Below are positions 8,912 to 59,099 of a DNA stretch of 64,000 nt, piece by piece (the first letter of the stretch is position 1; each line of letters begins with the position of its first letter). Below the pieces are notes generated by a model that was not told the DNA's origin, searched no databases, and saw only the letters and a list, made by a program, of their open reading frames with translations. The DNA lies in NCBI GenBank assembly GCA_030704615.1, contig CM060731.1:72044001-72108000 (forward strand), given 5' to 3'. The DNA is from Takakia lepidozioides. Its lineage: Eukaryota > Plantae > Bryophyta. Position numbers and translations under genes: made by a program.

Positions 8912-11900
8912 TCACTCTGACCCTGACTCAGACGTATATGCTTGAGCATGGTCTCGACTGCCAGACCCGTCGATATTTCGCAAGTGCGAGGACGCATTCT
9001 TGCTTCTGGTTGTCCTTCCTTCAGTTAGTTGGCTGCCTGCATCTTTTGTGTTTGGATTTTCTTCCTCATCCACCACAGTACTACTCCACTGCTGCTTGGT
9101 GATGTCAGGAACTTGGAACTCCGGCTCCTGCTCAAGAGCAATTTCTTGGCAAATGTTCAACAGAAGGTCCCAGATGGCATTCTACACTTCATAACACTTC
9201 AGGTGTACACAAGCAAAAGGAATCACCATCAGCAGCAATGATCTTGAGTCAGATGGTTCAGAAGGAGATGCTAACAGAGGGAGCTGCAGAGCTGTGGGTG
9301 CCTAACCTGTGGTACATTTCACTCACGCTGTAGCTCTTTAACTCCGCTATTTCAAAATTTAGTACTGATGCCCAATATTGAGACCAAGGAACATGACTGT
9401 ATGACGTGTGGCAATCAATGCAAGTGAGGCACCACCCAAGAGAGAGGTAGGATGTGTGTACCTTTTTAGCAGCTTCCATCATTTTCTTACGCAGAGCCTC
9501 ATGCTCAGCTCGCACACGAGAAGGCACACCTCTGGTCTGGTAAATATTCTGTTCTGCCAGGTCTTCGTTGATATAGTTCGTAGTAGTTGCAAATGGATGA
9601 TTTGATGGAATCCACCTAATCTCGTCAGGATCTACCCCCTCAGGCACAGGATCACCTTCATTCAAAAATACAACAGGCCGCTTCCATTTGTAGGCCTGAA
9701 TGCGTCTGTTCTGGTGACTGGCTACCTGTTCATCTGTCAATGTTACAGGTGCTAGCCTAAATAACCTTCCACACATCTTGACCATTGGATTCTTCTTCCC
9801 CATCTTTACGAGAGGGTTATTGAAAGGATCTTCAAACTTCAATGAAGTTGAACTGCACCCATGTACAATACACATAAATACGCACAATCAGAACTTACAA
9901 ATTCAGTTTATTACCACACATAGCACCTAGAATCTTATCTGTCCAGAATAGGGACAGCCATAGAGACTTCCTATAATCAATACAAACTTGATAGTGAAAG
10001 CTTCCCACAACCTACAAGAAAACTCATGACAGGTAGAATGTACTCATAAGACGTTGTTTGCCGTAGCCTTGTGGCCATTGGCCACGCGCCCAGTTTGAGC
10101 AGAACACAAAGGGACAGAACCTACATTTGTCAGGGGCTGACACCGGTAGTAAGACTTACCTTGGAATAAACAATTGACCCTGGTTTTCCAGCTACCCTCT
10201 AGAAATTCCTTTACACAAGCATCAACCTGCTGTGAGTGGTTCGCCCAATAACTAGGCCCCAAAAGGGCCTGGACTTTTGGCTCAGCCTCGAGACTTTCAA
10301 AGTTGGTAAACAGAGGTACAGGCACAAACCCTTGATATATTTGAAGAGAGCGTCTCTCTGGTGGGAGAACCCCGGACAATATCAGAAATGAATACTGTCT
10401 TCAGGTTGCCCACACAACTGGCAGTTGCACTCTCCCTTTCCTCTCTGCTTCTGTTTGCTGTTCAAAGGTAGGCTTCCCGCCCCGAGTTTAAATTTCAGTC
10501 TAGTGCCGAGAATAGGTAGACCCTTGAGGTCATCCATGATGTCCTCCCCCATGTCACAAACTGGAAACAAGTTCAGGGAAGTTTTCTGCATAACTCATGA
10601 GAGGTAGAGAGAGAGGGGTGGGGGGGTGGGGGACATACCCAGATTTCCTATCCGACCTGAGCTGGCCTCTCTTTACAAGATCAGACACAGAACCTCCCAT
10701 ATCATCACGAGGTTTTGCCAAAAACCCCAGCACCACCATCACAAACACTGCTGCAGTAACACCAACTCCAGCTGCCAGGCTCATTGGCACCGGGCCTCTT
10801 TCAATCTGCAAACAGACTCGGCCACGTCATGACCACTAGCCACTATCTCACTCTGTTGACAGAAGGCTCACCTCCATCTCGGAAAGATTGAGAGCAACTT
10901 GAAGTCCTCACAAGTGGGATGTACTCAGTCGGGGCCATTAAGAAAGGTAAAGAAACGGGATTCTCTGGCATGCCTGCAACTTTCAAGTTTCTCTGGCGAC
11001 TTGAATAGTTCTCAACCCAGTATATAGCTCTCCACAGCAAGCTCAAATCTACTGAAGAGGAGGTGACCACAATGGCACAGGAGCTGTAGAGGCAGGGAGA
11101 GGCGGTAAATGTTTCATCTGAAAGGGTAGGTAAAATTTGTATCTTGCAGCTGCATCTTGCAACTTAGGTGCAGCTTTAGAAGAAAGAAGGCATGCAGTCA
11201 TGGCGAGTGCAGAAGTGTTGGCATAAGTAGCAGCAGCTCGACTCATGTCGACAAGAGGCAACAAGGGAGATGAGAATATAGTAAGTAGCCAAGTTCCGAT
11301 GGTCTTTTTTCCCTCTCTTCAATGCAGCTGAGGAGGAAAAAGAGAGGAGACAATCTCACAACCCCATTGAGGTAACCGAGCTCATCAACCACAAACCCCT
11401 AATCAAGCGGCACGCTACCTGCTATGTACGATTTGGTTTATTCAAAAGATTGCCAGAATTTTACCTTGCGGATAACACTGCAGGGATCTCAAAGTCACGA
11501 TGATAGCAGAGGACACAGAAAGTGTAGCTCGTGCAGCTATGGGTAAACAGATAGACACAAATAGAGTCCAGCATATTCTACACTCCTAAGTCTGATAACT
11601 ATACAACAAATGGAAGCTTACCTGGCTTTTAGGAGCCATCGAAGACAGAAGAAGGTCATTGTTAGCTGGCATTTCATCCTCAGAGGCAATCTTGCGAAAG
11701 GCGTCTGCGAAAATTTTCTTGGCCGCAACCCTAGGCGCTGTCGATTCAGCTGTATCAGCTTCAGGCTTCGATGGCAGCCTTCTATCAATCTCAACGTTCC
11801 TCTGTTCGGCTACAACAAGGCCAGCACTACAGAGAGAGACTCTTCGCGCAATAGAAGGGTAACGCAGGACTCCGCTGGACCTTACGACGGGAGGGAGAGG

Positions 11901-16920: not shown

Positions 16921-17800
16921 ATGAAGTTTGATCTTTGGGAGCTAGAGGCTAACGTCAGTAAATGTGCAGTGGTGGCATTCAACGACAGAGGAGAGGGAGG
17001 AAGTGATCTCAAGTGGCAGTGGGGTAGCCAAGAGATTCCGGTCCTCCCTTCCTACACTTACCTGGGCGTTGAGTTTTCCTCCAACTGTAATTGGGATGCA
17101 CATATTCGGAAAGTTGTTCAAACTGACAAGGGCAAAGCGCTGGGTCTCACTAAAGTTTTACACTGCAGAGGGGTCAACTCTGAGGTTAAGAAAACCATGC
17201 TTTGTTGCGTTATTAGACCTGCCTTGGAGTACGGATCTGCAATATATGGGTTGATAACTCCAACCAGGCTAAGTCTTTAGAATCCATTCAAGTGGGGGTG
17301 CTTAAGGAGTGCATGTCAGCATGCTCCAAAACAGCCAATGTGGCTGTTCGGGGTGGGCATCCCGTCCTTAAGCTCCCCACGAGATGAATTCAAGGTCCGG
17401 TGGTGGGGTCAGCTGCAACATATGTCCAACACCAGATATCCTAAGTCTCTATATCTTGGAAACAGGACTGCCCTGTCAAACAGGCTAAGTCCTGGCAGAA
17501 GAGAGTAAGAAGAGATTCTCAAGGATCTGGATCTGGATTCACAAGTCTTGACTCTTGACCCTGCTCGATAAATCTGACTTAGAGGCTGTAGTGTCCAAAC
17601 CATGTCTGTTGCCATGAAATTGTCTGATGAAAATGAAGTTAAGCAGAAATCTTCCCTGAACTTGTTTCCAGTCTGTGACATGGGGGAGGACATCATGGAT
17701 GACCTCCAGGGTGTACCCACTCTCGGCAATAGACTGAAATTTAAACTCAGGGCAGGAAGCCTACCTTTGAACAGCAAACAGAAGCAGAGAGGAAAGGGAG
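16921..17800 (+). mobile_element. Degenerate LINE ORF2 3' fragment next to a (CT)n microsatellite
   Basis: YTYLGVEF...IRPALEYGSA, LKFKLRAGSLPL; homologous to 40270-41040. Confidence 0.75.
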
Positions 17801-20338
17801 CCCTAACCATGTTGGGGTCTAATTGTTGGGCAGCTCAAAGCATCCAAAAGATGGCCGAGTGGTTAGGACACAAGACTGCCTAACAAGTGGTCTGGGTTCA
17901 AAGACCACGTATGTGTATGTTGGATGTCACCATCATATAATCCAACCCAGTTATAAAAAGGGATCCCAAAGAGACACGGCTATTTGTAACTGAGGACATG
18001 AGGTCAATTGCATTGCCTTGCTTACAATCATTAGAACTTGTCCATCTTCCAAGCGGCCCCTTGGGGATGAAGTGACACCATAAGTTATTTGTGTTTGGGC
18101 AGGAGTCCTCCCGCTCCTTGGGCAGTTCACACACTAGTTGAAGCTTGGTGTGAAGGGCTTTCTAGAGGACATCTTTGAAAACCTGAACTAATTGTCTTCA
18201 CCATGTGCTAAGTCATACTACCGGAGTAAGTGGATGTCATTTCAGCCAAAATGGCTATTATGACATTTTAATTCATTTTATTTTTAATGAAAGGCCCAAG
18301 TTAGGCCACAATATATTTAAAATGAGGAAAAAGTAACCTCACATGACATGCCATGGAGGCTGAAAAAGGGCACACTGCCCCCTAACCAGGAAAGTCGTGA
18401 AGAAGAGCCTAGCATAAGTCTATGAGGGAGAAGAAGGTCCGAAAACGTAATAATCAGAACCGCAGGAGGGAGGGGAGATTCAACGAGGAGTTCATCGGAA
18501 CCAGCGTAGAAGAAATCGTTGGAGAACGCGCCAGAAGAGTCACTGGAGGTCACACCTGAGGGAAGTCCGACGCCAAAGACCAATCTAAGTTAGTCCCTGA
18601 CCATCACCTTTGGAATTCGAGGATAACATCAACTGGAAGCACAAGAAGAATAGGAATTCCAAGATTAAAGCTCAGATCTAAGCGTTAGGCCTTGTTTCTC
18701 AGCTCTCGTCCCCTTTTCAATCCTTGTTCTGCAGGGTTGTTTCACTTTTGGCATAGATGGTATAATTTCTTGTTAGATTTATGCCTTAGTGGTTGTTTTT
18801 TAGGTTTGGTTTTCAGCAGCTGACTCTTTCAGTAAAGCATGACTGGTAATTATGGCTACCCATTGCGGTGCTCTGAGAGGTTCCCCACGATTGTACTGTC
18901 TTATGGCCCTCAGGAGGTTATTTTTTCCTCGTTTCTTAATTTGATTAGAAGGGCTCCGTTCCCCTTTCCTTAAATAAAAAATAAAAACTAATAAAACTTT
19001 AATAAATACCTTTCTTTGTATCTTTCTTTTTACAGGCTATTTTTCATTTTGCCTTTCACACAGGCAATATATGGTCATTGCCTTTCTTTTGACAGGCCGG
19101 TTTTTTTTTTTTTTTGGGTATTTTTTGCCTTTCAAATGCCTTGTAACAAGTGCAAAAAGCAACCTATTCATGACATTCGGCCGAGCCACTGGAAAAAGAA
19201 ATCATACTATACATAGGTCTTACATGGCATTTGGATTATTTATAAACACACCTCAAGCCAGTAGGAGCATGCCTAGCATTGCCAAAAAGAAGGGCGCCAA
19301 CTTCAAAATGATGCTTCCGGTTTTTTTGGCTGGCTTCCCGTCCCCAGCAACACCGCGAGGCTCTTTAAGGCCGCCTCCCCACTAAAACTCATCCTCTCTC
19401 CCATGGCATCTACTGCTCTTTGCTGACCCCCTCGCACGCTATCCTCAAATTCGGTGGGCCTAAGTTTAGGTTGTGGAGAGCATGGGCCAGTCCCTCCTGG
19501 CCTCCGGCTTGGGAAACCTAGTGTATGTGGCATTTTTAGGCTATGGTGGAAGTGAAACTGGTACCGATAGATAACCGCGCCAGAATGGCGTGCATCCGTC
19601 GATTGCTGGGGCAAGTGGCAAGTTGGCCACTTGCTCGCATTACTTATTGCCGCAGCAAAAGACCCACCACTTTGACGGTTTTGCGACTGTTTGGTGAGGC
19701 TGTGCTGGTCATGCCCTAAGACAATATTGTCGTAGCAGCATGTACACAAACAAACAAGTACATTCCATATGACATAAATCAAATGCCAGACCGAAGAAAA
19801 AGTTTAATTTTTATTAGCCACGAACTCATTCAAAGCCGCAGCATCACTTGGATCTAAAGAGTACAAGTTTTGAGATGGTTCAAATGACATAGTCACTGTT
19901 GAGATTATGGTATCAACATCAATCCACTATGTATCACTGGAGTCATATTTGAACTTCAGATGATCCCTACCTAATTTCATCCTGATGGATTGGAGCCGGA
20001 TGAAATATGAGAAACTTGAAAAGGATGGATACATTATATTGTAGATAAAACCCTTTAAGGTAGTGGCATCTAGAAGTGTGCGCGACCTTATTATGTCCCC
20101 TATTTTTGATGAATGAAGTCACCATTTTCATTTTTGTACTGTGCACTTTTGTAAAGGAGGCGATTCAAGGTTAATTCTTGCTTTGGATTAGGTACGATGT
20201 GAGGTGTTTTGGAGTACAAGGGGTTTATTTAATGCATTAGTGAAGCTAATTACATAGCAGCCTATTGATTCTTATTTCAAATTCCTAATTTGTTTTTTGA
20301 AATGGAGGCGAGTGTTTTGGGACAATGGCCAATTAATA

Positions 20339-20857
20339 TGTCGTGCGCATACATATCGCTACACAACTACATCGCTGTCCAAACCACACCACACATATAT
20401 GCACAATAAAGTAGTCTAGCACAATGATAAAAAACTTGAAAAAGGACACACTCTCAAACACAAAATATGCAATCCCTCAAGATCACTCTTTAAATAGTCG
20501 AGCCAGGGGCACCCCAAGCTATGGGGACTCCACCCCACAACAACCTACACTCCCATCATACACTCAGATCTAAAATGCAGGAGCTCGTCGCGCAGGCTCA
20601 ACTCGAGAGAGATGAGCTGCGCGACTGCCGCTCTCGTGAAGATAAGACGACCAGGTGTCAAACTAAACTTGACACCTGATTTAACACTTGACCTAAATCC
20701 AAGTGTTAAATACAAATAACTAGTTTTATTCTAGCTGTTTTCACACTGTGCTTATTTAACTTGACAGCTGTCGTGCGCATACATATCGCTACACAACTAC
20801 ATCGTCGCTGTCCAAACCACACCACACATATATGCACAATAAAGTAGTCTACCACAA
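20339..20857 (-). repeat. 3' terminal B1-gc-A2-B2 repeat block
   Basis: An ~87-bp B unit is present twice, flanking an ~342-bp A unit that recurs at 31892-32246, 58593-58949 and (reverse) 61287-61541. Confidence 0.9.
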
Positions 20858-21114
20858 TCGCCCCCCTAGCTGGTGGATAGGTCCCTCTACCTCCAGATAG
20901 CTACAAGATGTAATAGCCACAGCCGTACTAAGTCCTCTATCACTGTCCCTATCGTACTCAAACTCTATAGACCAAGAGGCCGGGTACAAGAGTAGCCCCA
21001 TCGTTAGTCGCCGTCTTGCAATCTGTGAACTTGAGCCAGGACTCGTGTGTTCAAGGTCTCCTAGTAGCTGGGCCTTGCGTTTCTTGTTAGCCTCCATGGT
21101 TGTATCCACTCCCA

Positions 21115-22380
21115 CTATCCAATGCAATGTGGACATAACCAATCCCCATCCGGAACCATCTCAAGAGGTGGAGTCAAGCATCCCATATGCCAACCTCTAG
21201 AGCATCGATCACACACCAGCATGGTGGCTGCCCCTTTAGCAGACCCACACAACATGCACCTCAAACCTGCAGATACCACTGCCAGGTTTGGGTCAATCCT
21301 GCCATCGACATTCGGAAGGTGACATGGCGCACAATTACGCACATGGTCCTTCCAAGTTATGCCATCCCGACCCTCCAAGACCAAGACGCCTGAGGGCAAG
21401 ACCTCTCGAACCCTCAAAATAACACGTCCTGCAGTCACATCCAGGGTCGTAGGAGCAGTCTGCTGCAGATAGACATAGTCACCAGGGTTGAATCTCCGAA
21501 CCCCAGGACGATAGCCCCCACCACGTATGGTAGCATACCTCAACGTATCACGGTGTTGTGCAATGGCAAGGTTCTCGAAAGCCATGGGCATGACTCTCTT
21601 GAACAACTCTGCACGCTGCTCACATGCACGTGCCCACACGTCCGGATCGTCAAGGTTAAGAACTGTAGCAGCTTCTCTGCGAATGGATGTAGGCAAATCC
21701 GGCTCTCGGCCAAAGAGAAGAAAGTATGGTGAGAAGGAGGCAAGTGATGCTTGCTTGCTGAACCTGTAGCCCATGGCTAACCAGGGTAACTGAAGGTCCC
21801 AATCTCCTAGGTGTCCCTTCTGCAAGCCATACTTGCGCAAACCCCTCTTTACTGTCTGAACAACTCTCTGCCAAGCCATCGGCCTCAGGATGATCCCGAG
21901 AAGTGGCGGTGGTCTATCAAGGCCTTGTCACACAAAGCCTGAAACTCCCCCAAGAACTCTCTCCCTTGGTCCGTGAGTACCTCAGCTGGAGCACCGAATC
22001 GGCTAAGCACACAATCCAAGAATGCATACGCAGCTCCCTCACTAGCCTTATCAGGCAATGGAACCAATTCAATCCACTTGGAGAAGTGCTCCCACCATCA
22101 CCAACACGTACTTGTTGTGGCGCATGGTCAGTGGCAACGGCCCTGCGAAGTCAACTCCACCTGTAGCCCAATCCCATGATCGGAAGAGGGTGCAATTGTG
22201 GAGTAGGGGCGTTGAATGAAGCACGCACCCTGTCACACACCATGCACCTAGCCACAAATTGTTGCACCTCTGTGTGCATACCACGCCACCAATACTGCCC
22301 CTGCAGTAGACTATGAGTGCGTCGCACCCCAAAATGCCCCAACTCCTCATGGGCATGCCGCACTAACCGTGCCCGCTGTG
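21115..22380 (-). CDS. DDE integrase (HHCC zinc finger, rve core, SH3-like region) with C-terminal PHD finger; frameshifted in this copy
   Basis: HEELGH...CMVC; DFAGP / TDQGREF / GLAERVVQT; RFNPGDYVYL; CMLC...CDRC..GWHMGC...WLCPHC. The same region is a single ORF at 59944-60939. Confidence 0.93.
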
Positions 22381-22859
22381 TTGGGTGAGGCACAATCCTC
22401 ACTCGACCATCCTCCCACACTCGGAGCAGGTGTGTCCCCTCCCACCTGAACCTCTTGGCTCGTTGTAGGATCCGATCCCTCTCCTTGGCAGTCATAGTGG
22501 CTGCCGTGTCTCCACTGCGGAGGTAGTCCAACACAACTGAATCCTCATGTATATCTTTGGCGCCACCCTGCTCATTGCTGGCCTCAGGGTCCTCAGACAC
22601 TTGATCTACAGTCATCCCTGTTGTAGGTCCAACCTGGCCTTCCGCTGCCAAGATACACAGAAATGCAGATGCATGCCATCCGGGCACCATCTCCTCGTCC
22701 GTCTCACCATGCCACCGAGCTCCAGTGTCATCCTGCTGGCTCGTGCATGGATTGCGACTCAACCCATCTGCATTTCGATTGACCAAACCCGGTCGATGCA
22801 CCACCTGAAAGTCATACTCTTGAAGGATGAGTGCCCACCGTGCAAGCTTCCCGTAAGCT

Positions 22860-24081
22860 TGTCTGACTCCATCAACCACTTGAGTGGTTGGTGATCCGTG
22901 ACAAGGGTGAAGAGATTGCCGTATAGATAGCACCTGAAGTGTGCCACGGCCCACACTGCAGCTAAGCATTCTCCCTCATATGAGCTATACTTAGACTCTG
23001 CAGCATTGTTCGAGCGGCTAGCATAAGCCACTACGAACTCTCTTCCCTCATCATCCACCTGTGTGAGCACCGCTCCAAGCCCCAGCATGCTCCAATCTGT
23101 ATGCAGCTGAAAAGGACGCCCCCTGATAGGTCGTCTCAAGATGGGCGCCGAGGTCAACCTCGCCTTGAGCTCTTGAAAAGCTTGTTCTTGCTCATCTTCC
23201 CACTGCCACTGGGTCCACCTTGGTCAGCTTGGTTAGAGCCTTTGCAATGGCACTAAATCCCTTAACAAACCGTCTGTAATAGTTTGCTAACCCCATGAAA
23301 GCTCGAACTCGGCTCACATCCGTGGGGCGTGGAACCTGTGCAATGGACTCTACCTTAGTCTGCTGTACCCCCAATCCTCCAGGATATATCATGTGACCCA
23401 GATACTCAATCTGGTTGTGGAAAAACTTGCACTTGCCCGGATGTAACTTCAATCCGTGCGTCCTCAAGCGCTCAAATACCCCCTGAAGGTGTCTCTCATG
23501 CTCCTCCACCGTAGCACTAAAGATGATGATGTCATCTATGTAGCACCGAGCAAACTCCACCCCTGCTAGAATCCTGTCCATGACTCTTTGAAACTCAGCG
23601 GGAGCGTTTTTAAGCCAAATGGTAAGAACCGCCACTGGTATAGGCAATCCTTCCCGTGCTCATTGATCCCCCAGAATGCCGTCTTTTGCTTATCCGCCTC
23701 CTTGATCGGCAACTGGTGATATCCGGATCGTAAATCCAACGTGCTAAAGACCTTGGAATGCCCAATGGCATCAAAGATCTCCTCTGGTGTTGGCATGGCA
23801 TACCTATCGGACTTGGTCTGACGATTTACAGGCCGGTAATCACCGCACATACGTCTCTCCGTCCAATTGCCATAGACATCCTTCTTAGCTGGCATCACTG
23901 TGGCTGAAGCATACTCTCCACCAGAGAGCTCCACCAAACCTGCCTCCCAGAGATCTTGAGTCCTCATCTGAATCAAAGACCTCTCCATGTCACTGTATCT
24001 ATAGGGTCTCCGAAAGATTGGCGTGTCAGTGGCCAACTCAATACGGATCTCTTGACCCTTCAGTGCTCCCAAGTCCTTCAA
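22860..24081 (-). CDS. Reverse transcriptase + RNase H (Ty3/Gypsy type), several 1-nt frameshifts
   Basis: RRMCGDYRPVN, FSTLDLRSGYHQL, LPFGLKNAPAEFQR, CYIDD, IEYLGH, FMGLANYYRRF; RNase H LHTDWSMLGLGAVL, YSSYEGECLA, TDHQPL. Confidence 0.95.
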
Positions 24082-24529
24082 ACTGAAGGCAAAGCAATTC
24101 CTGTAAGCCCTCAGGAACCGCCGTATACGTCGTCTCTCTCCTCCGGTGACAATGGGTCCAATGTCAGGCTCCCAATTGTCCTCCGTAACTGCAACCTTAA
24201 GTCCAGTGGGCTTAGAGGTAGAGGACGCGTCCCGTGGTTGCTATGCTGCAACCTCTTGAGCAGTACCCCCTTCCTGCTCAGTCAATGACAAGGCCTCATC
24301 CTGCCCCATCATCTCATCATTGAGAACCTCCTCATCCCGAGAAGAATCCCCAACCTCATCCATCACAGCTGCCTTCGCTGCCAACTCCCCTCTGAACCTC
24401 GCACCTCCCACATGTGCCATGGATGTCTACCTCGTGGTCCTCACCGGCTCGCCCCCACTCGCTGCCTGTACCGTCTCGGTAGGCAGAGAGACCGTCAAGG
24501 GAAGTGCACTCCGCACTCTACGTTGCTCA

Positions 24530-25485
24530 GCCATAGCCAAGCTGACAATCCAGGTCAAGCAATTGAGATCCATTGCTTGCCCCAACACCTGACGACGTGA
24601 TGCCTCAGAAAGAGAAGGCACCGCCGTGGTCCCAGTGGAAAACCCCATAGCCCGCTCTCGCTCGTCGGCATTAGGCTCCACTAACTGCTGCAACTGAGCA
24701 TCCCACAGGAGGCCAGGTCCACCATCCCGAAAAGCATGGGATCCTGGGAAGCTGAGCAGTGTAGGTAATGCTGCTCGTGGTTGACCCACCCTGTTGACCA
24801 CTGCCAAAGGCGAACGGTCATCGTGTCTCACACGTTGAGACTGCCTTCCTGTGTCCAAAATGCCATCCACGGTGAGGTGTGCTGGCCGCTGCACCCCATC
24901 AAATGCACGCTTGAGCAGTGCGGGTGGCATCAAGTTAGTCCACCATAGTCGTGGACGATGAGCCCGTGACCCCACTGCAGCTGCATCCAGCAACACTGCT
25001 GACCCAAGCCACGACCGGACTTGATGCACACTGGCCATCACCCTGGCCCGAGAATCACCCATCAGTGGTACATTCTCCAAGATGTATGCTGGAGATACAG
25101 CTTGATGAAGCTGCAAGCAGCGCAAAATCCGCACCATCTCCCAAAACAGACCCGTCCTCGAGTCTCGCAATCCATTGCCATGCCCGGCTGATGAATGCCC
25201 TTGGCAGGGCCAACCTGCCACTATCAGATCAATGAGCCAACCTGCTCCAAATCTTGCGCCCCCAACAAGGAAATGTCTGCTGGCAAGGCTTGTTGGTATC
25301 CACGAACTGCAGACACAGGCAACAAGTCAGGGTACTGCTGTACCAACTGAGCCACATGGCGCAGTGAGACGCGTCGTGCAGTCTCATCCCTCTCCACATA
25401 CAGGTAACGCCTTACCCGCACACCTGCCTGTAGCACAGCAGCCAATCCGGTGCTGATCCCGCCAAACAAGTCCAGAAGGCAAATG
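24530..25485 (-). CDS. DNMT3-like C5-cytosine DNA methyltransferase domain inside pol
   Basis: Motif I LLDLFGGISTG; II YVERD; IV IDLIVAGWPCQG; VI YILENV; VIII AHRPRLWWTNL; IX ERERAMGF; X RRQVLGQAMD. One 1-nt frameshift at ~25235. Confidence 0.9.
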
Positions 25486-25879
25486 CCTTCATCCGGCCGC
25501 TGCCACACAAGAGGTGTGGTGTCCAATGGCGACAACTGAGGTGGCCCTGGTGCAATCACCGCACTCTCCTCCTCTCCTGACGGTACAAAAGCTTCTTCCC
25601 AAGCTTGTTGCACCCGTCCATCAGCAGCTTGCTGCAAATCCTTGCTCGTACCCCACAACGGAGTGTGAGCAACCATGGCAGGCAACTCCGCCGTACCATG
25701 CATGTCATCCTGCTCTGCTGGAGGTGGCACATCCTCTGCATGGGCATTGCCTTCCAGCAACTCTCCAGGCCAACTAACTGCAGCTGTGAAGGCGGCTAGT
25801 GTTGGCATCTTGCCCCGCTGGGCAGCTGCAATACCCCCAATGAATGTCACAGGGAGCTGTGCACGGCGACCATCCCCTG

Positions 25880-26290
25880 ACTGCCATCCAGGCCTGTAGG
25901 ATGCTGACTCCTCCCAGAAATCCAGGGTGAAGCCCATGGGGTATAACACTGCCCCACCAACGAGGACATCGTAAGAGACCGCGTCTGTCACAATGGCCTT
26001 GGCTCGCATCACTGAGCCATCTACAGGATGATCCGGCTGCAGTCTAATAGCCAACTGATGCCGTGTCATGCCCCGAGCCTGCTCTGATCCTCCCAGAGAT
26101 GTCTGTATCTGGAAAGGACAAGGCTCCATATCCGCCTCCATGAGGCCCAAACCTGCAATAGCAGCTCTGCCCAACATCAGTGGCTGAGCTCCTGAGTCCA
26201 ACAAGACCCGCAGTGGCCGGTACTTCTTGCCTGCGGTCCACTCAAAGTGAAAATGCCTCCCTGGTTGTCTAACAAGACAACTCCAGGTGT
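25880..26290 (-). CDS. Retroviral-type aspartic protease
   Basis: VLLDSGAQPLML...YDVLVGGAVL, in frame with DNMT motif I in ORF 25224-26204. Confidence 0.85.
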
Positions 26291-26829
26291 CACCATGGCG
26301 CGCTCAAAGGCTGGCCTAGCTGGCAGCTCCGTCAACTGGCAGCTGCAGCTTGCCAGGGCGCTGCCGTGGCAGTCTTGACCCTCAAATCCGAGGATCCCTC
26401 TGCCACTACACCTTCCACTAACTCCGCAGAAGATGAAGTGACCTCCCACTCTCACAGAGTTTGCTGCTAGTCTGAACACTGCAGCTGGTCTCACCCCGGC
26501 GTCGCAATCATGGTTGCCGAGAACAGTGGGGCTTGACACACAGAGGTGGCTGCCCCCAATAACACACCGCCGCACTAGCCTTGGCAGCAGGAGTCAATGC
26601 TGCACGTGTAGCTCTCCCCAATGGCATAGTAACCTCCGCCTCGGTAACAGTCGGGCGAGAACTAGGTGCCATGGATGGCGTCGACACAGTCTCCGCCAAT
26701 GTGAATGACTGAGGAAGCCTTGCCTGACGGCTTGCCTCCCCACGCTGTGGATCCAATTCCACCTCTGCACCTCGTGGCTCAGGAACTCGTGCTGCTCCTC
26801 GAGTCACGGCTGCAGCAGACTCCACCTGC

Positions 26830-28410
26830 TCTAGTGGTAGTGCTGCTCCGCACATAAATCCCATGCCTCCCATATCTCCTCCCCAGGAGCAGGAGGTGGA
26901 CCATCCCGCCTGGGAGCCGAAGCTATAGCCATGGCAGCGAGCCTCTGCTCTAGCTGCTGAAGCCGGTTGGCCATGCCTTGATCAACGCCCTGACCTCCGC
27001 GTCCTTGGCCATGTTGAGCTTGCCCTTGGCCTGCACCTCGTGCCCGACCACCTCGTCCTCTCTGGGCTGGTCCACCTCGCCCCCGGCCACCATTGTTCCC
27101 TTGGAACTGGCCTGGGCGCAACTCAGGATGCAAGTCATAACACTGGGCATCTCCATGCCCATACTTGCCACAATGCCCACACTGCAACTGTGCAGGCTGT
27201 GCTTGTGCCGGCCTTCTGCCACTCTCTGGGCAATCTCTCTTGACATGGGGTCCTCCACATGTCCAACATATCACCCCTGGTTGCTGTTGGCCTGCAAAAG
27301 ATGCCACGGGCCTCTGCACCTGAGGCCCCCTGTAAGCTCCATGGAACTTGGGCTGGGCAACCTTGCCCCCTGACCACGCTGTTGGGCAGTCCCTTGTGCT
27401 TGTGGGCTGACAGCTGTGCCCCGTACAGGCATGTCCTTGCCAAATCCAATTGTAACAACTCGTCCCACCATGTTGAGCTCAATCCGCTCAGCCAGCAGAA
27501 ACACATCTGCTAATGTGGGTTGGGCTGCTTGTAACAGGGTTGCATCTCGCACCCTTCTCTTGAGCTCCTTGTCCAGAATTCCATACCAAAACTGGATTGC
27601 CTGAGCTTCAGTAACCCCTTGGGTCACACTTATCAAGCGCCTCATACGAGTGTACGCCTCTCGCAGGCTCTCACTGGGTTTGCGCTGGAAGTCTTGCAAA
27701 CTTCGCAGCTTCTCTGTCCGTACACCTTGGTAGTTCCTCCGCAACTCCTGGAAGAACTCCACCACCGGGTTGAATCTAGGCACATGTGTTGTAGTGTGGC
27801 AGGAGGAGTAGTAGCACCTTTGAACTGGTACCACCTGCAGAAGTACCAGCACTACCTGCTCCACTACTAGTGCTGGCAGTGGGAGCTATTGGTACTGATG
27901 CAGCTACTGGTCGCGTCGTGCCTCGAGTAATGGAGATGTAGTCAGGTGACCAATACATCCTCACTCCTCAATCTCTGCTTCATGTCCTCGCCTGAACTCG
28001 TGGTAATCGTCCATAGGCGGGCCTTCCAAATGCTGGAACAGTCCCTTCCACGCCATGAATGGGGTGAATAGATGTGGATTGCGCATCTGCTGCAAATCAC
28101 ACCAGCTGTCGAACTCCTGGATAAAGTCATCCAACTCGATTGTGCCCACAGCTCCAGAGTACCTACGAGGCCCCTTGGTAGCTCCATACATCTCCTCCAT
28201 GTCGTCCCACAACAATGGCGAATGAAAGTGCACACCTGTTGATGAAGCCTCCGAGTCTGTGTCTGACTCTACAGTAATTGAGGGTGGCGGTGAAGGTGGT
28301 CTGAACCGAATACCTCGTCTTGTGAACCCACTCTCACTGTTACTGCCTGTAGCCGTACTCCCCTCCCCTGGGTAACTCCGTAATGACACTCACAATGTGC
28401 ACCTCCTCCA
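26830..28410 (-). CDS. Gag (capsid + two CCHC knuckles), frameshifted
   Basis: FQRKPSESLREAYTRMR (major homology region); CWTCGGPHVKRDC and CGHCGKYGHGDAQC. The capsid part is one ORF in the second copy (53914-55011). Confidence 0.85.
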
Positions 28411-28927
28411 CGTGACACTATAAGGCTCTAGTACTAATCTAATAGTGACACGGGTGGGCACCTGTTGCAGTCTAAGGGTCATATCCCAGTGGCTCAGGGC
28501 ACCTGCACCTGCATCCACCGCAAGAACTCCTATGGTTGGCTGGTCATCAACCCAGCCTCACCATAGAAGAAACACTGGTGGTCTTGCTGGTCATCACTCC
28601 AGCCTCACCACCGACAGCATACTCTAGGATTGACCGGTGATCAAATCCGGCCTAATCCCTATGAAAGCAAGCGCCCACACAAACCAACATGGCGCACAGT
28701 CAAGCATGCAGGTTTGGGGGGATCCAAACACAAGAAATCAAAACATCAACACCCCCACACCAAAATCCAGCTGCAATGCTGATCCTGCAGAATATCCCAG
28801 CCCAAAACCCCGGACTGACTGGCCTCCACCAAGAGAGGCTTTGGCAACTACAAGTACAAGGTAATGAAAATAGTACAGAGATGGAGGGGAAGAATAGAAG
28901 CCCGCCCAAGCAAGATCTAATCCTGAT

Positions 28928-29730
28928 CTATGCTATCAACTTCCAGACTTCTCTCAAAGTGCCTCGCTCTGCTTGATGGTAAGGTGTAGGAGGTATATCT
29001 ATGTCCAGAAACCTGCCACTAACCTTGTCCCAAGCTACAGTAGCTCGCTCTAACCAACCCTCCTCCTCTTTCTGCCAGGTAGAGACAAAGCAACACTCTG
29101 CTATCTCCCGCTCACTGAACACTAAAGAAAACAAAGGTAGGGTCTGATAGTCTCTCAACTCGAAAGCTTTGACGGTTGCGGGTGTCTTCATTGCGAATGA
29201 CTGCATCGCCTTCAAACAGAACAAACTTGTCCTCGCTAATGAACCCCCGCTCATGGTTGCCTTGTGCAGAGCGTGTCCGACTGCAACACTGTCTAATTGC
29301 ACAAACTTGTGCAGCTCCTGCTCCTCTGCTCCAGTACACCACGGCCTTGTGGCTGAACACCTTGGTCCCCGGGGCTGTCTTTGGCTGTGTTCCAAGCCTA
29401 GCTTTCACCCACTTTGGTATTTCACCTACAGCTGCAGAACTGCTGGCTCCAACAGAGTTCTGACTGTCCAAGGCGATATTGAGGCCCTCAATGCCAACTA
29501 CAGCAGTCTGTTGTCTACTGCTAATGCCTGACTCCCAGTATGCAATCAACTCGTCCAACTGTTCTCCACTCAAATCAGTCTGAGTTTCCTTGGGAAACAT
29601 AAATCGTGTCCCCTTGTGTGCACAGACTAAGAGAAGAGACCTGCCCTTCAATTACGTCCTCATTTCCCCCAGCCATGCAAGTACATCCACCAATTTGTCT
29701 CTCATATAGACCAGCACAGGTTCTAGAGAC
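28928..29730 (-). CDS. Unknown ORF (~260 aa after frameshift correction) upstream of gag
   Basis: Overlapping ORFs 29112-29651 and 28928-29395; conserved in the second copy at ~55529-56345. No family recognised. Confidence 0.5.
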
Positions 29731-31891
29731 AGGATTGTGGATCTTTCATGGCACACTCACACTCTAAAAATTCCATAGATTTTTAGCAGAGTCCCAAAAA
29801 CAGAAACCAGGTTTAGATAGGTAGATTTCCCCTTTCTGCAGCTATCCCCCAAAAACTGGGTCAACCAGAGTCCATTTGACAAGATATGATGAATTTGGCT
29901 CCAAATCATTCAAATTAGATTAAAAAGGTTTTTTTTTTTTTTAAAGTTTAAAGTTTAACATTTAAAGTTACACCCAAAATGTCTGGTAACTGGTTCCCGG
30001 TTCCCTAAGTTCTATATGGCATCCTAGGTTCCCTAGCCACGTGCCCTGTAATTTCTAGGATTTCAGTTGTGTTTACAAATGCACCCCCCACAGCTCTTGG
30101 TTACCAGTGACCTGCTCTCCTCCAGTCGAGATCCGTAGCTATGCCGAGCCTCTAATCCTTTGCACCAATATTCCCAACAAAAGCAAGAGCACTTACAATG
30201 CAACCCCGGAAAGCACCAGAACTGACTAGCTTGATCAAGAACGCTTTCAGCCCTTCATGCGTGCTGATTTTTCAAGGTGACAACAACAGATCTGCTATCA
30301 CTGATTGTGTAAGCCTTTCCATGGAGTTGGCACAGGCTGCCCTCAAGTCCTGAATTGTAAACATAGACCAAGCAGGTCGTGTAGTGAGCTGGGCCCCTTC
30401 AGCTCATATCCCACTCATACACCAAGTGTCACCTGGTGAGTCCACAGTCTCCCACTCTCATACTCTCTGCAACAAACACAACCTTGAGGTTTCAATCCTC
30501 CAAAACCTGAGGATCGCCAGCCTGGGAGTTGACACTGTCAGAAAGCGCCCTTCCCTTCCAGCAAATGGCCTAAGATCTGGTGACCTTGTCTATCCTTCCC
30601 TGGACAGCTCTTGCTTGGCCTTTCTCACAGCTGCCTGACATTAGACTACCCTCCAACGAATCGGGTGAAGAGAGATGACCAGTAATAGATTGCCTGGAGG
30701 CTTGCTGCTGCAAAGGGGCTGGCGTAAGTGCAGCAGCTCGTTGTGCTGGCTCAATGTGGAGTTCAGCTGCATTACCCGTGTACTGCCTGGCAGGAAGTTG
30801 CAATGCCCCACATCAAGGTGGCCTGTAAGCGCTGCCACCACGAGCTCCTCTTCAACAGTGCGCGGCAGGTGTCCAACTGCCCTCATGCCTTCTGCACTCC
30901 AGCCATCTCGAGCCAAAAACCCCATTCCACTAGAAAGCAACACTCAACCAACGAAGTGGCAATGGAAGGCTACACAGATGGTACGCCGAGATCAGAGACA
31001 TGCATCTCTCTGACGAACAGTTCTTTGCAACGGAGCGCGCCTACCAAACTCGCTCTGCGCAGAATCTGCCAACGATCAATGACACACATGCCCCAGGCGC
31101 TCCAGCAACACAAACTCCTGTGACAACCAACCCGTCAGACCACCAGATTATCCTCCGCTCTGCAACGCCTACGCCACCTGGTGCTCTTGGCTAACAACCC
31201 AGGTATCAAACGAGCACCGAGTGCGCTCAACAGTGATGCCGGCAGCTCCCACTCTGATCCCAAAAGTATGCTACGCCAGGCCCCTCACAACACATAGACA
31301 CCTCCAGTTCACCGATCACTGCCTTTACTAAGCACGGTAGCAAACTATGGTCTGGACTTCTCAAAATCGAGCTCCTCCACCCTGCGACTGATGGCATTGC
31401 GCTCTTAACAGACAACCGCGCCTTCGTTATGGAGATAGCCTTGGCGATTCCCATTCAGGACAAAGTGGAGAAGGCCCACGACCTACCTGCCTCCTCCACT
31501 ACCTTTCCCTGTACGCTGGCAGCGAGTCTCTACAGAGCACGGTGAATCCAGCAATATGCTTGCAAGCCAAAATGGGCTACCAGCCAATGGCCCTTCTTGA
31601 GCTGCAACACAGATGACCACACAAGTTGGGCACGACTGGCCTACTGGGTGCTCAGCCTGCCCCAGCGCTCAGGCAGCAGAGTCGCCAAGGCCCCCTGCGC
31701 GCACCCGCCACCACAAACAGGGATGACTACACCCTGATCACCACTAACGCCCATGTGTAAACAACAAGCGCAAACCCATGGCAACAGCAGGACTAGATGG
31801 GCTCCTGCCCCAAGTCATATATTTAAATAGTGTTAAAGAACATTGTATCTAGCTTAGCACTAGAAAACTAGATAGGCTCATCTCTCTCGAG

Positions 31892-32246
31892 TGATAAACA
31901 AACTTGAAAAAGGACACGCACTCTCAACACAAGAAATATGCAATCCCTCAAGATCACTCTTTAAGATAATAGTCGAGCCAGGGGCACCCCAAGCTATGGG
32001 GACTCCCCCCCACAACAACCTACACTCCCATCATACACTCAGATCTGAAGAATGCAGGAGCTCGGTCGCGCAGGCTCAACTCGAGAGAGATGAGCTGCGC
32101 GACTGCCGCTCTCGTGAAGATAAGACAGACCAGGTGTCAAAACTAAACTTGACACCTGATTTAACACTTGACCTAAATCCAAGTGTTAAATACAAATAAC
32201 TAGTTTTATTCTAGCTGTTTTCACACTGTGCTTATTTAACTTGACA
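31892..32246 (-). repeat. 5' terminal repeat A1 (LTR-like, TG...CA)
   Basis: Direct repeat of 20425-20766; not followed by a B unit. Confidence 0.9.
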
Positions 32247-32889
32247 AATACAACAACCAAGCATCAATGCAAATGGGATGCATGGTGCACCTTATATAGT
32301 GTTACAATGCACACATTTTTATCATACTTCCGTTGCCAAGGATGGCGGAAGAATGGGAAATGAGGGAGTTGTGGAGTCTTTTGGCTGTGTCCAGGGGGTC
32401 GGCTAGTTCCCTCCAAAGGAAAGTTATGGGTCCTTCCATAAGTAGATGTGCCCAATTCCGCGTTGGGAGACCGTTACTTTTGGGCCCGCACATGGCCTAG
32501 TTTTGTTAATTTTTGGGACAGGTTTAGGTGCACATCTTGTGCACTTAGGGCAACTTAAAGCACATATCAAGGAGGATTATAGGGCATTATAGGATGGACC
32601 TACTGAGCAGTAGTGGGATAATATGTACTTTGATTTTGATAATTCATATATAATACATCCATGATTGGAAAATTATGTGCTTTGCACAAATGATTGTTGC
32701 TTCATTTACTATTCTGCTCATATAATTTTTGTGACACTACACCCTCTGAGGAGTTGCACACTGCTTAAAAGCACACTTCAAGATACCACTATCTTACATT
32801 AATTTTTTTAAGTAAAACTTTGGATTTTAAAAATTGGATGAAAGGATATTGCCTTACCGTATTTTCTAAGTAAAGCTTTTCTAAAATTT

Positions 32890-37067: not shown

Positions 37068-40000
37068 ATGGCAGAGTATGGAGTGGGCTCGGTACCTGCG
37101 GAGATGTCTGCCTTTTCCAGATGTTCTCCAGGAGTTTCGGGGTGTCCTCAAACGTCTCCCGGAGGCTATGCTTCTTGCAAACCTGGGCCAGGGATGAACG
37201 CTTCAAGAAGGTGCGAGCCGTGCTCCCTGTACGGTCCTCTGCATTTTCCCAACAGCATGGTATTGGAAATTGCTTCGAGAAATTGCAAACCGATTGCGGG
37301 CCCATGCAGACCGGTAGCGAAGTATGAGATTTATGAAAAGGGACTTAAGCAAGGAGGTCACCTGGAGGTGCAGAGAAATGAGTGGCCCTGTCCCCCCGTG
37401 GTCACAATCAGCAAGGAAATTGACAACAGAGGAAGCCACAAGACGAATGAAGAGGGGCTTTGGAACGAGTATTTTGTAAACCCGAGTCGATTGTGGGGCA
37501 ATCGAGGCAATAAGGTGCATGCCTGCTACGTTGAAGCAGAGAACAGAATGCAGTGAAATACTTTCTCGCAAATTGCTGAGGGCACCCACTCTCTCGCTCT
37601 CTGCCTTTTTCTTCTCAGGACTGTGCTCTGCCAGGGAAACCACTTTCAAATGTGTAGTTGATCGACTCTTCCATACCCTAATGAGTTGGAGCCTGATCTT
37701 GGGAGGCTTGTGGGTGTTTGCTATGGAAATTCTGGGTTTTTTCAGCCACTTGCGGCGAATCCATGCAATTTTTTACCGGGAGACGGATGCTGAAGGAGGC
37801 AGGATGTAATATGGGTGCAGATCCACATTAGAGGACCTGATTTCAAGCACAAGAGGACCAATGAGGCACTGTGGACTGATAGCTACAAGAAACCTGCATG
37901 GGTTGATGTTCAATTAAAGAAGCTGGAGGTAGCTAGGGGTATGTATCATGAAATGCTTCTAAGACAGGTGATGAATATGGGCTGGCTTTCCCTACATTGG
38001 CACTTTGAAGTCACATGAAAGGACTTTGGCAAGGATTGCTCTTTGGACTGGGTTTTCCTTGGGAGGGCCTAGGATCGTTTCTGGAACCAGTTCAGGATTT
38101 GGTCAGTGTATGTTTCATCTTCTATCAGAGGTCATAACGGGGAGTTTATCATGAGCTTTGTGAGCGAACTTGTCTTGTTGATGAGTATTCTTGACATGTG
38201 ACTGCAACTGGGTTGCAGGCAAATATCCGAATACCCACAATAGTGATGTGGAGAAGCTTGGGAACGGATATTTATCAAACCCTGGTCAATGGTTGGACAA
38301 ACAAGCCAAGAAGGTGACAAGATAACACTACTGGCGAATTAGTGATTGCAGATTTGTGGACTCTCTTTTACCCCTCCTCCTCTCTCTCTCTCTGGATGTT
38401 TGTTTGTTTTGACGTGAACCCCACTTTGCTTCAGGTAAGGTAGTGCGTTGGATTTAGTTGGAGAGTTTGGGGCCTCTCCCTCTTTAGAATATGCCTACGC
38501 GGGCTATTGCCTGCAGCTCCCTGGAGTGTGATCTCTGAATGGTAACAAGCGGACCCTACCGCATGGGGGCAGCCCCTCCGCCCAGATTGGGCAGTTGTAT
38601 GCTCTGTCTCATACTCGGCACTTGGGCTAGGGTTGGTCCTTGTGCTTATACTTATAGCCTGCGAATTCTACCAATACATTACCTCTTATCAATAACAACA
38701 CTCCCCAGGGTGATTCCTGGGAATTGGTTACTTACGCCAAATCTAGGGCTTCATGTGTAGTTTCTGGGGTGAATCCCAGGATGGATGATGTGTCCTTTAA
38801 AACTACATGCTCCAGTTTAGGCTTGGATTATATGGATAATGGTTCATCTCTAGACTTGATAACAGAGGTACTTCGAAGGTTGCAAAGCCCAAGAATGCTA
38901 CTAATAGAGTCTCACATCGATTCAATCTCAAAGAAGTTCGTCCCTTGACCGGCTGGAGAGCAGTCTTAGACATTGGTGATTCAATGAGGCGCTCTAGGAA
39001 GACAACCAAGGGCAGGGACTTCAACTTGAAAGTTTCTAACCGGTTTGATGCACTGGATGAGGCTGATTCCAAGCAGTCAGTGCTGAGCCTGAGCGTCGTG
39101 TGACTGAAGGATTTGGTAGTCTGAATGGTTTACCAATCCTTAAAGTTTACACAAGATGTGCAAAATCTGCACACGGGGTAATTGTCCCCCCTTTGCAGAA
39201 CGGTTGGCCGTCCAGGAGCAACCATAGGCTACCTAGACGACAAACAATTCATATGCAAAGGGCTGGCTTGCGGCTGGGCACTTTCAATTTCTCAGGGCCG
39301 ACTAAGCAAGAGACATGGGAAACTTCGGACAAACTGGTTGGAGTTGTCAATGGTTTTAAATGGATCGGTAAGATGTGCGCTCTTAAGCAGTGAAGGGTCC
39401 TCTGAAGAATGGAAGGACACAGTTGGAAAAACTGTTCCTATGATTCAAGACAAACCTGATGACTTGGAGTATATTTCAAAGGCTTACAGCGCTCCCATTA
39501 GTTCTTCTGAGATTGTGGAAGCAATTGAGCATTTAAACGGATATAAAGCTGGTGGACCTGATGGCATAGTCAACGAGCTTATCAAGCACGGTGGCGATCC
39601 AATGATAGAGGCCCTTGTACTTCTCTTTAACCTTATCTGGAGGACTGAACGATCCCCTTATGCTGATGACAGGGGGTCATTGTCAATCTATACAAGAAGG
39701 TGTTAGAGAAGAACCGGGGAACTACCGAGGCATCACACTCCTCAATGCAGTTGGCAAGATATAAGTACTCGTCTCAAGGTTGATCTGGAATCTAGAGGTT
39801 GTTTCCATGAAGGCCAAGCTGGCTTTCGGCGAAATAGGGGCTGTGTCATATCTTCACTCTAAGCCAGATTATCCAGGGAGGGAAAATAGAAGGGAAACCC
39901 ACTTCTGTATTTTTCTTGGATGTCAAAAAGGGTTATGATGTGGAGAGAAGGACTCTGGTCATGTGGGATCAAGGGAAAGATGTGGAGAGTTGTCCATAAC

Positions 40001-43000: not shown

Positions 43001-43831
43001 TGGAATGTGATGATTGCAGGATTTGCTCAGCATGGCTGCGGTATGGATGCTTTGGAGACCTATGAGCAAATGAACTGGGAAGGGGTGGCACCTAACCAGG
43101 CCACGTTCGTCTCTGTTCTCAAAGCATGTGCCAGCCTGGCAGCCGTGGAAAAGAGCAGAGAGATCCATTCTGACATTATCAAAGCTGGAATTGAGCCCAA
43201 TATCATTCTGGAGACTGCTCTCATCAATATGTATGCCAAATGTGGGAAGATAAGTGATGCCCGTCAAGTGTTCAACGACATGACTCAACGAGATGTAGTC
43301 TCATGGAATGCGATGATAGCAGGATATTCTCAGCAGGGGTGTGGTAGGGAGGTCCTGCAACTGTTGCAGCAAATGAGACAAGAAGGCTTGAAGCTGGATG
43401 GTATCACCTTAATATGTGTTCTCTCTGCATGCAGCCATCTGGGCCTAGTGGATGAAGGCAGTCACTACTTTGACACTATTAGCCGAGATCATGGCCTCAC
43501 TCTTACAGTGGAGCATTTTGGCTGCATGGTGGACCTTCTTGGCCGTGCAGGGCGACTGTATGAGGCAGAAGATTTTATTAACAAAATGCCAATCAAGCCA
43601 GATGCTTCAGTGTGGCGGGCCTTGCTTGGTGCCTGCAGAATTCATGGCAACGTGGAGGTGGCAGAGCGTGCAGCAAAGGGCCTTCTCAAGTGTGATCCAC
43701 AAGATGCTGCAACTTATGTGTTACTATCAACCATCGATGCTGCAGCTGGCAGGTGGGATGATACTGCAAAGGTGAGAAAAGTGATGCAGGACAGAGGTGC
43801 CAAAAAGGAGCCCAGGTCGCTGTTGCATTGA
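37068..43831 (+). CDS. PLS-class PPR protein with N-terminal OSB-type PDF motifs and E domain (4 exons); DYW tail disrupted
   Basis: Exons 37068-37514, 37821-37938, 38219-38313 and 41609-43831, all GT-AG and phase-compatible (0,1,0); five L-S-P triplets then L2-S2-E1-E2 (HFGCMVDLLGRAG...WRALLGACRIHGN). Confidence 0.8.
38780..41262 (+). mobile_element. Degenerate LINE (RT-containing) in intron 3 of the PPR gene
   Basis: GPDGIVNELIK, NYRGITLLN, QAGFRRNRGC, FLDVKKGYD, GVAQGCTLSPLLFNVFIN and the C-terminal zinc motif; many frameshifts; 5' limit uncertain (possibly ~38400). Confidence 0.85.
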
Positions 43832-53810: not shown

Positions 53811-53854
53811 CACCTGAAATCTGTCAGCATAAGATTGAACTGGAACCAGGAAAG

Positions 53855-58949: not shown

Positions 58950-59099
58950 GGCCGAATAATATATTTGTTTTTCCTGACACATTGCATTAAAGTATTGTTT
59001 TTTATTGTTTTTTATTTTCGAAATTTGTACTTCTGCTCATGAAAACCGATTGTCTTACTACTCCGCTCATGCCGCTCATGCTCATAAAATAGCAAACCT

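Follow-up and report, generated by a model that had tools for sequence, protein, structure and literature searches.

A DNMT3-like methyltransferase domain and a conserved, probably leaky stop codon in a land-plant Gypsy retrotransposon

Introduction

A Gypsy retrotransposon of 11.9 kb, lying at positions 20339-32246 (minus strand) of the window (the whole 64,000-nucleotide stretch of Takakia lepidozioides DNA analyzed here), encodes a protein domain that, judged by its sequence and by the modeled fold of a close relative, is a genuine DNMT3-like C5 cytosine methyltransferase. The domain completes a reading frame that begins with Gag and protease, and this frame ends at an in-frame stop codon that is conserved in the family. 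On balance, we lean toward reading the element as a young split-repeat Gypsy copy in which a leaky stop would leave the enzyme at Gag levels and the enzyme would methylate the element's own cDNA.

Results

The methyltransferase domain most closely resembles DNMT3

The following features define the domain and its immediate surroundings.

24520-25490, minus strand: DNMT3-like C5 cytosine methyltransferase domain, motifs I-X, supported by Pfam, structure ranking, fold match and motif alignment
25475-25446, minus strand: motif I
25233-25235, minus strand: one-base frame break, likely an assembly error, without counterpart in a contig from another organism (run X10) or in other host contigs
25215-25201, minus strand: motif IV (GWPCQ)
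25077-25069, minus strand: motif VI (ENV)
24963-24949, minus strand: motif VIII (AHRPR)
24663-24640, minus strand: motif IX
24585-24562, minus strand: motif X
24427-24429, minus strand: premature stop private to the window copy, missing in relatives, with short gaps at 24400 and 24428 relative to other copies
24235-24243 (stop at 24241-24243), minus strand: conserved in-frame TAG followed by CAA CCA (CAR-YYA), the predicted readthrough site

The original prediction that all major C5 methyltransferase motifs occur in canonical order was confirmed. When the whole domain is aligned, motifs I, IV, VI, VIII, IX and X follow one another on the minus strand and include the catalytic Cys, Glu and Arg residues by which such enzymes are recognized. 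The Pfam DNA_methylase profile, named earlier as a check, matches the larger piece of the domain with 47.3 bits (cut-off 22; E 2.6e-12). Motif I shares one open frame with the protease motif LLDSG (ORF 25224-26303), and motifs IV-X lie within ORF 24427-25326, such that a single frame change at ~25233-25235 accounts for the entire domain and an intron is not required. The domain is therefore intronless and in frame with the upstream protease apart from one 1-nt shift, as had been proposed. The further statement that the coding region is broken only by this shift holds within the domain, but two in-frame stops separate the domain from the reverse transcriptase (RT), one private to this copy (24427-24429) and one family-wide (24241-24243).

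The proposed resemblance to DNMT3 is upheld both by sequence and by fold. An intact relative ranked against PDB entries matches DNMT3A best (3.6e-11), followed by DNMT3B (6e-08), DRM (1e-06) and HaeIII (4.5e-05). DNMT2 scores no better than E 0.42. The structure predicted for the domain of locus L002, which is 71% identical to the larger piece of the window domain, has a pLDDT of 93; its best Foldseek match is DNMT3A (E 1.4e-20, TM 0.73), and all matches listed are DNMT3 proteins. Unlike those of DRM, the motifs are unpermuted, which together with the nearest sequence and fold supports a DNMT3-like assignment.

The domain resides in a Gypsy coding region

The remaining coding parts of the element are as follows.

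21118-21270, minus strand: PHD finger at the end of integrase (Pfam PHD, E 5.8e-11)
21271-22402, minus strand: integrase, H2C2 zinc finger and core, frame-broken as assembled (Pfam Integrase_H2C2, E 6.3e-17; tblastn to the open frame of L059)
22762-23205, minus strand: RNase H (Pfam RT_RNaseH_2, E 1.4e-34)
23195-24150, minus strand: RT, in two frames as assembled (Pfam RVT_1, E 4.5e-09 and 2.7e-18)
25881-26258, minus strand: aspartic protease, with LLDSG at 26204-26184 (37% to L059)
26300-28200, minus strand: Gag, comprising a capsid region, two zinc knuckles and an RG-rich linker, frame-broken as assembled
30046-31767, minus strand: variable 5′ segment of low copy, where depth drops ~1000-fold

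The domains are thus arranged as Gag, protease, DNMT, RT, RNase H, integrase and PHD, which preserves the Ty3/Gypsy order of Gag, protease, RT, RNase H and integrase. The protease of the window copy yields no Pfam match, and its homologue P0027 matches Asp_protease_2 (E 6e-4). Gag matches Retrotrans_gag at E 6e-4, below the Pfam cut-off; in homologues, Gag, protease and DNMT occupy one frame. In the 5′ region, 22 translated frames give no Pfam match to a tyrosine recombinase or any other known domain. The segment at 30046-31767 does not align to the corresponding segment (56688-58468) of a second family copy in the window, and this position appears to be one at which the family exchanges captured sequence. 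The variable segment of the second copy carries an intron-free DEAD-box helicase fragment (57642-58016, minus strand; DDX19/DDX25-like, E 1.1e-12).

Split terminal repeats define the ends of the element

The ends of the element are formed by the following features.

20335-20338, strand not applicable: target-site duplication, 3′ side, 4 bp, identical at both ends
20339-20425, minus strand: terminal repeat B, outer copy, with the element ending in ACA (96% to 20769-20858)
20425-20766, minus strand: repeat A, 3′ copy, beginning TGTCA (matches 31892-32246)
20767-20768, minus strand: two extra bases at the internal B/A junction, with the same junction in L002, L020, L038, L064 and L075
20769-20858, minus strand: repeat B, inner copy, resembling B of Sphagnum-like loci
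20859-20869, minus strand: polypurine-tract-like run just upstream of B, with its G-run kept in the window, L020, L038, L062 and L064
31892-32246, minus strand: repeat A, 5′ copy, at which the element begins with TGTCA
32247-32250, strand not applicable: target-site duplication, 5′ side, 4 bp, identical at both ends

Instead of ordinary LTRs, the element has a 355-bp repeat A at its 5′ end and the series B-A-B at its 3′ end. Among 36 long loci examined, the A-coding-B-A-B layout is complete in L038, L062 and L064, and the covered part matches in five more. The TG...CA ends and short target-site duplication are those of a Gypsy element, whereas the split ends, A and B-A-B, depart from the canonical LTR form. 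A 4-bp target duplication flanks the element in the window as well as in L062 and L064 (which represent one insertion), and that of L038 has one mismatch. Inspection by eye of the sequence after the 5′ A found no TGG-like start of a tRNA primer site, and the run at 20859-20869 may act as the polypurine tract. The internal B/A junction joins the end of the element to its start, as a circle junction would, and it likely serves as a template for rebuilding the ends. Membership in DIRS/PAT was considered and rejected, given that the 5′ region has no tyrosine recombinase and that an integrase and a target duplication are present.

The window copy appears young but imperfectly assembled

As assembled, the element has at least 10 frame breaks outside the methyltransferase domain. 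Alignment of the two A repeats of the window copy (356 columns) shows a single substitution but 10 short gaps, whereas aged loci show 17-30 substitutions and 0-1 gaps between theirs. Ten of the 12 indels listed relative to other copies are bases absent from the window, and 3 substitutions and 9 gaps separate the window from a contig of 2173 bases that comes from another study. This gap-rich, substitution-poor and deletion-biased pattern is better explained by a young insertion with errors from long-read assembly than by decay. The frame break at ~25234 is thus likely to be such an error.

A conserved stop codon separates the methyltransferase from RT

The domain had been described as part of pol, located between protease and RT. 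Its location is as described, but the domain does not belong to the Pol frame. It closes the Gag-protease-DNMT frame at the stop at 24241-24243, and RT follows in the same frame. Among proteins in which the domain precedes RT (type I, see below), 30 of 35 measured end 57-181 residues past the domain.

We surveyed 82 sequences (81 loci and the window), of which 62 have RT within 1.5 kb downstream; these 62 loci amount to about six independent lineages, down to 50% identity. In 59 of the 62, the RT frame contains a stop 18-33 codons upstream of RT. The exceptions are two decayed-looking loci with a sense (Tyr) codon in its place (L031 and L045) and one locus whose stop is out of the RT frame. 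The stop is followed by CAR-YY in 57 of the 59, compared to a background of 252 among 31,921 (0.8%) for any stop triplet. An exact CAR-YYA follows seven stops (the window and six other loci), and CAA CCC follows 47, nearly all from one Sphagnum-like family. By lineage, the contexts are CAA CCA, CAA CCC, CAG TTA, CAA TCA and one that has decayed. The second codon after the stop can specify Pro, Leu or Ser while YY is kept, which points to a signal read at the nucleotide level.

Some loci are open on both sides of this stop. In L059, the conserved stop is the sole divider between a 1369-codon Gag-protease-DNMT frame and a 1047-codon frame extending from RT to PHD, and L061 is open from the domain to PHD except at this codon. 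From these sequence patterns, it is probable that a minority of ribosomes read through the stop to reach RT. In plant reporters, CAR-YYA alone drives tobacco mosaic virus readthrough at 20-32% (PMC2754532), and retroelements require ~20 Gag per Pol (PMC2194720). If readthrough does occur, the protease and the methyltransferase would both fall on the abundant side of the stop.

Alternatively, TAG might not be read through at all, and access to RT might depend on splicing or on an internal promoter. We judge this to be improbable, though it has some merit. TAG could serve as a splice acceptor, the six loci evaluated reveal no conserved RNA structure downstream of the stop (z -0.5 to -2.5), and Tca2 provides a precedent in which a similar-looking stop exhibits no measurable readthrough and a junction promoter is present (PMC2194720). 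However, the open loci keep their frame across the stop, and there is no Met ahead of the RT core, as evident by the fact that the first Met after the stop is codon 117, inside RT. Moreover, the bases upstream of the stop are purine-rich and the conserved CAR-YY lies on its 3′ side. TAA replaces TAG in 16 of the 59 loci, which also disfavors a splice site, although these loci may be decayed. Readthrough therefore remains our preferred route to RT.

In eight proteins from deeper type I relatives, the domain is fused to RT without a stop. The stop looks derived within type I, since the fused relatives that are included in the tree fall outside the stop-bearing group.

The domain is a widespread trait of the family

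The element is very abundant in its host. In host DNA run X1, summed contig depth over the domain is 18,000-21,000 (a value that is not a copy number), similar to that over protease and RT, compared to ~10 for single flank contigs. A 5-kb contig from run X10, which is labeled as a different organism, matches 24429-25560 with 68 differences, and this match indicates that the family is common to different species labels.

A search at E<=1e-10 yielded 112 homologues, including records from Marchantia polymorpha (15), Calypogeia (2), Sphagnum (2), Closterium (2) and Spirogloea (1), and a profile search (73 matches) added chlorophyte relatives. Neither set contains a vascular plant or Klebsormidium record, which is weak evidence. 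A search of protein representatives gave 267 clusters at E<=1e-30, and a search of viral contigs gave one locus only (L001), which looks unrelated.

Two architectures are evident. In type I the domain lies before RT, and in type II it lies between RNase H and integrase. The chlorophyte branch of type II is large, with 55 proteins having the full order and with named hosts Monoraphidium, Haematococcus and Cymbomonas. The two types separate both on an RT tree (support 86, 43 rows) and on a DNMT tree (support 98, 49 rows drawn only from retro-elements and one dinoflagellate), and the window groups with bryophyte rows in both; these were quick trees of selected rows with long outgroups.

All four catalytic residues (the Cys, the Glu and both Arg) were found in 135 of 145 full-length domains, comprising 57 of 64 of type I and 78 of 81 of type II. 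Many type II domains deviate nearby, as Glu, Ser or Asp replaces the Pro before the catalytic Cys in 45 of 81. These counts bear on the idea that the domain has a non-catalytic role, either binding DNA or RNA within the particle or modifying the element's RNA. Consistent with this idea, the Klebsormidium domain gave no activity in yeast (PMC5890265), and the catalytic loop of the window domain reads PCQ, not the PCN of DNMT3A. However, retention of all four catalytic residues across land plants and algae, a fold that best matches the DNA-acting DNMT3, and the poor DNMT2 score make a role of this kind doubtful, and we continue to favor an active DNA methyltransferase.

Selection on the domain

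Among the open loci L059, L051 and L061, dN/dS of the domain is 0.136, 0.12 and 0.10. These ratios of 0.10-0.14 between open copies lie far below the value near 1 that would have refuted the original prediction. Comparisons of the window with six loci give 0.08-0.22, with synonymous sites near saturation. Among close Sphagnum-like copies, the DNMT ratio is 0.40-0.96 and exceeds the 0.18-0.72 that these pairs give for RT or RNase H; decay of dead copies or relaxed selection may be the cause. By these substitution ratios, the domain is kept under purifying selection.

A neutral or one-off capture of a host methyltransferase gene by a single copy is rejected on these grounds, and we assign it almost no probability. 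The helicase fragment in the second window copy does indicate that the family picks up host sequence. Nevertheless, the methyltransferase occupies the same position with the same catalytic residues in liverworts, mosses and algae, the trees are congruent, and dN/dS is ~0.1. Absence of the domain from other family members, a second result that would have refuted the original prediction, is contradicted by the relatives in Marchantia, Calypogeia, Sphagnum, Zygnematophyceae and chlorophytes.

Genomic surroundings and CpG content

The host gene MULTIPLE CHLOROPLAST DIVISION SITE 1 (MCD1) is located at 8963-10811 (minus strand). Its product is 79-84% identical to proteins from liverworts, Sphagnum and lycophytes and 61-72% identical to named fern and seed-plant proteins, and a small tree built without hornwort rows places it no more closely than among bryophytes, with weak support. 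This comparison agrees with the land-plant host assumed at the outset and points to a bryophyte as the likely host. An intron-free PPR gene with 303-base repeats occupies 41489-43831 (plus strand) and looks to be of the PLS class, the one used in organelle RNA editing. Pieces of another repeat, LINE-like in appearance, are scattered at 10196-10595, 16927-17800 and 39182-41263.

Two further copies of the family, both partial and here termed the second and third, lie within 53855-62802, with a 5′ part at 53925-58950. There is also a 3′ part, in which the last 1.6 kb is inverted (59943-61541 versus 61542-62802), due to rearrangement or mis-assembly. The second copy breaks an unrelated Gypsy element (51631-53850, plus strand) that encodes a Ty3 capsid, zinc knuckle, protease and the start of RT, and that has no methyltransferase.

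CpG depletion was considered as a sign of self-methylation. The CpG ratio is 0.50 for the element, 0.84 for the neighboring Gypsy and 0.43-0.44 for the host flanks. Four stretches of the element contain 25 CpGs at codon boundaries where 73 are expected, compared to 53 versus 69 in the neighboring Gypsy (the one comparator) and 11 versus 59 in a host gene. Depletion does not decide the matter; the element is more depleted than the neighboring Gypsy and no more so than the host flanks. Run X5, whose identity as RNA is a guess, does not cover 24631-25051, and this has no bearing on expression.

Discussion

A possible role for the methyltransferase in marking element cDNA

The organization of the element suggests the following series of events. 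Most ribosomes would very probably halt after the methyltransferase, with a minority reading UAG-CAR-YY and continuing into RT-RNase H-integrase-PHD. Such readthrough would yield methyltransferase at Gag levels, above those of RT. The protease would then likely release the domain inside the particle. There, the domain might methylate cytosines of the cDNA before integration, such that a new insertion would arrive marked as silent, host-like DNA; we consider this last step as apt to be wrong as right. The element's own cDNA is our best guess for the substrate, and we hold that guess with the same evenly divided confidence. Fusion of the domain to RT in deeper type I relatives, and its placement between RNase H and integrase in chlorophytes, count against the reading as a whole, as they imply that Gag-level amounts are not required everywhere.

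The enzyme could instead act in trans. Excess protein would enter the nucleus and methylate host DNA, further copies of the element or the site of insertion, with help from the integration-steering PHD finger. Placing a stop behind the domain would yield enzyme well beyond the requirement of a single cDNA, and Symbiodinium retro-DNMT3 domains equipped with a nuclear signal methylated yeast genomic DNA (PMC5890265). Yet the Klebsormidium methylome is plant-like despite the presence of such elements (PMC5890265), and other relatives have the domain attached to Pol, as would suit work on cDNA. We therefore regard action in trans as unlikely and methylation of the element's cDNA as the better working model.

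More tentatively, and with less confidence than we place in the cDNA model itself, the Gypsy lineage with this domain may be old and green-plant-wide and may be active today in bryophytes including Marchantia. Relocation of the stop behind the domain in the land-plant branch would then have brought the methyltransferase to capsid stoichiometry, with each new cDNA methylated before integration and the element silencing itself without small RNAs.

The function of these enzymes was left open by the 2018 paper, whose Gypsy example was inactive in yeast (PMC5890265). Because relatives occur in the genetic model Marchantia polymorpha, the question can be put to experiment, and the conserved stop offers a concrete prediction regarding the amount and location of the enzyme. 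If the element does mark its own cDNA, plants would gain a transposon-supplied route to de novo transposon methylation. There is also a practical consequence, as public gene models for bryophytes include such domains, either without a name or labeled simply as methyltransferase genes, and these can inflate host DNMT counts.

Comparison with known systems

The closest known element is KnitGypsy-Dnmt3 of the alga Klebsormidium nitens, as described by de Mendoza et al. in 2018 (PMC5890265); the likeness rests on that published description rather than on direct sequence comparison. Both elements combine Gypsy domains with an intronless, unpermuted Dnmt3-like domain, both have DIRS-like A-coding-B-A-B repeats (Fig. 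4c legend, PMC5890265), and in both the domain is under purifying selection (PMC5890265). The window element thus shares the KnitGypsy-Dnmt3 layout. It differs in having a land-plant host and in the frame that carries the domain, which is the Pol frame according to PMC5890265 and here is the Gag-protease frame, ending before the stop. The available portion of the KnitGypsy-Dnmt3 account makes no mention of readthrough (PMC5890265). When expressed in yeast, the Klebsormidium domain yielded no methylation, a result that its authors call inconclusive (PMC5890265).

SymbioDIRS-Dnmt3 and SymbioLINE-Dnmt of Symbiodinium are likewise retrotransposon-borne cytosine methyltransferases (PMC5890265), and SymbioDIRS-Dnmt3 carries out de novo CG methylation in yeast (PMC5890265). 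The Symbiodinium elements are of the tyrosine-recombinase or LINE type, whereas the window element encodes a DDE-type integrase with PHD, has TG...CA termini and is flanked by a 4-bp target duplication.

Two in-phase frames divided by one stop are also found in MuLV gag-pol, SIRE1 pol-env and Tca2 (PMC2194720), and the UAG-CAR-YYA context of the window stop is shared with tobacco mosaic virus (PMC2754532, PMC2194720). In contrast to these stop-separated retroelements, the stop in the window element comes after protease and methyltransferase rather than after Gag, and its readthrough is predicted.

Cellular DNMT3 proteins, including human DNMT3A/B and moss PpDNMT3a/b (PMC6453930), have the same motif order and fold. 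The retro-domain is only 21-24% identical to DNMT3A/B, has PCQ in place of PCN and is embedded in a polyprotein; Pfam detects no PWWP, ADD or DUF3444 domain in the homologues P0005, P0027 and P0208.

A literature search confined to papers outside subscription found no land-plant report of the element and no report of its stop, in keeping with the original prediction that no characterized land-plant example was known. In the text available for each source, PMC12344493 mentions only 'streptophytes', and PMC6453930 and PMC11982613 do not mention the element. The kind of element is already known from Klebsormidium (2018), and the window element departs from that example in its land-plant host and in the conserved stop behind the domain.
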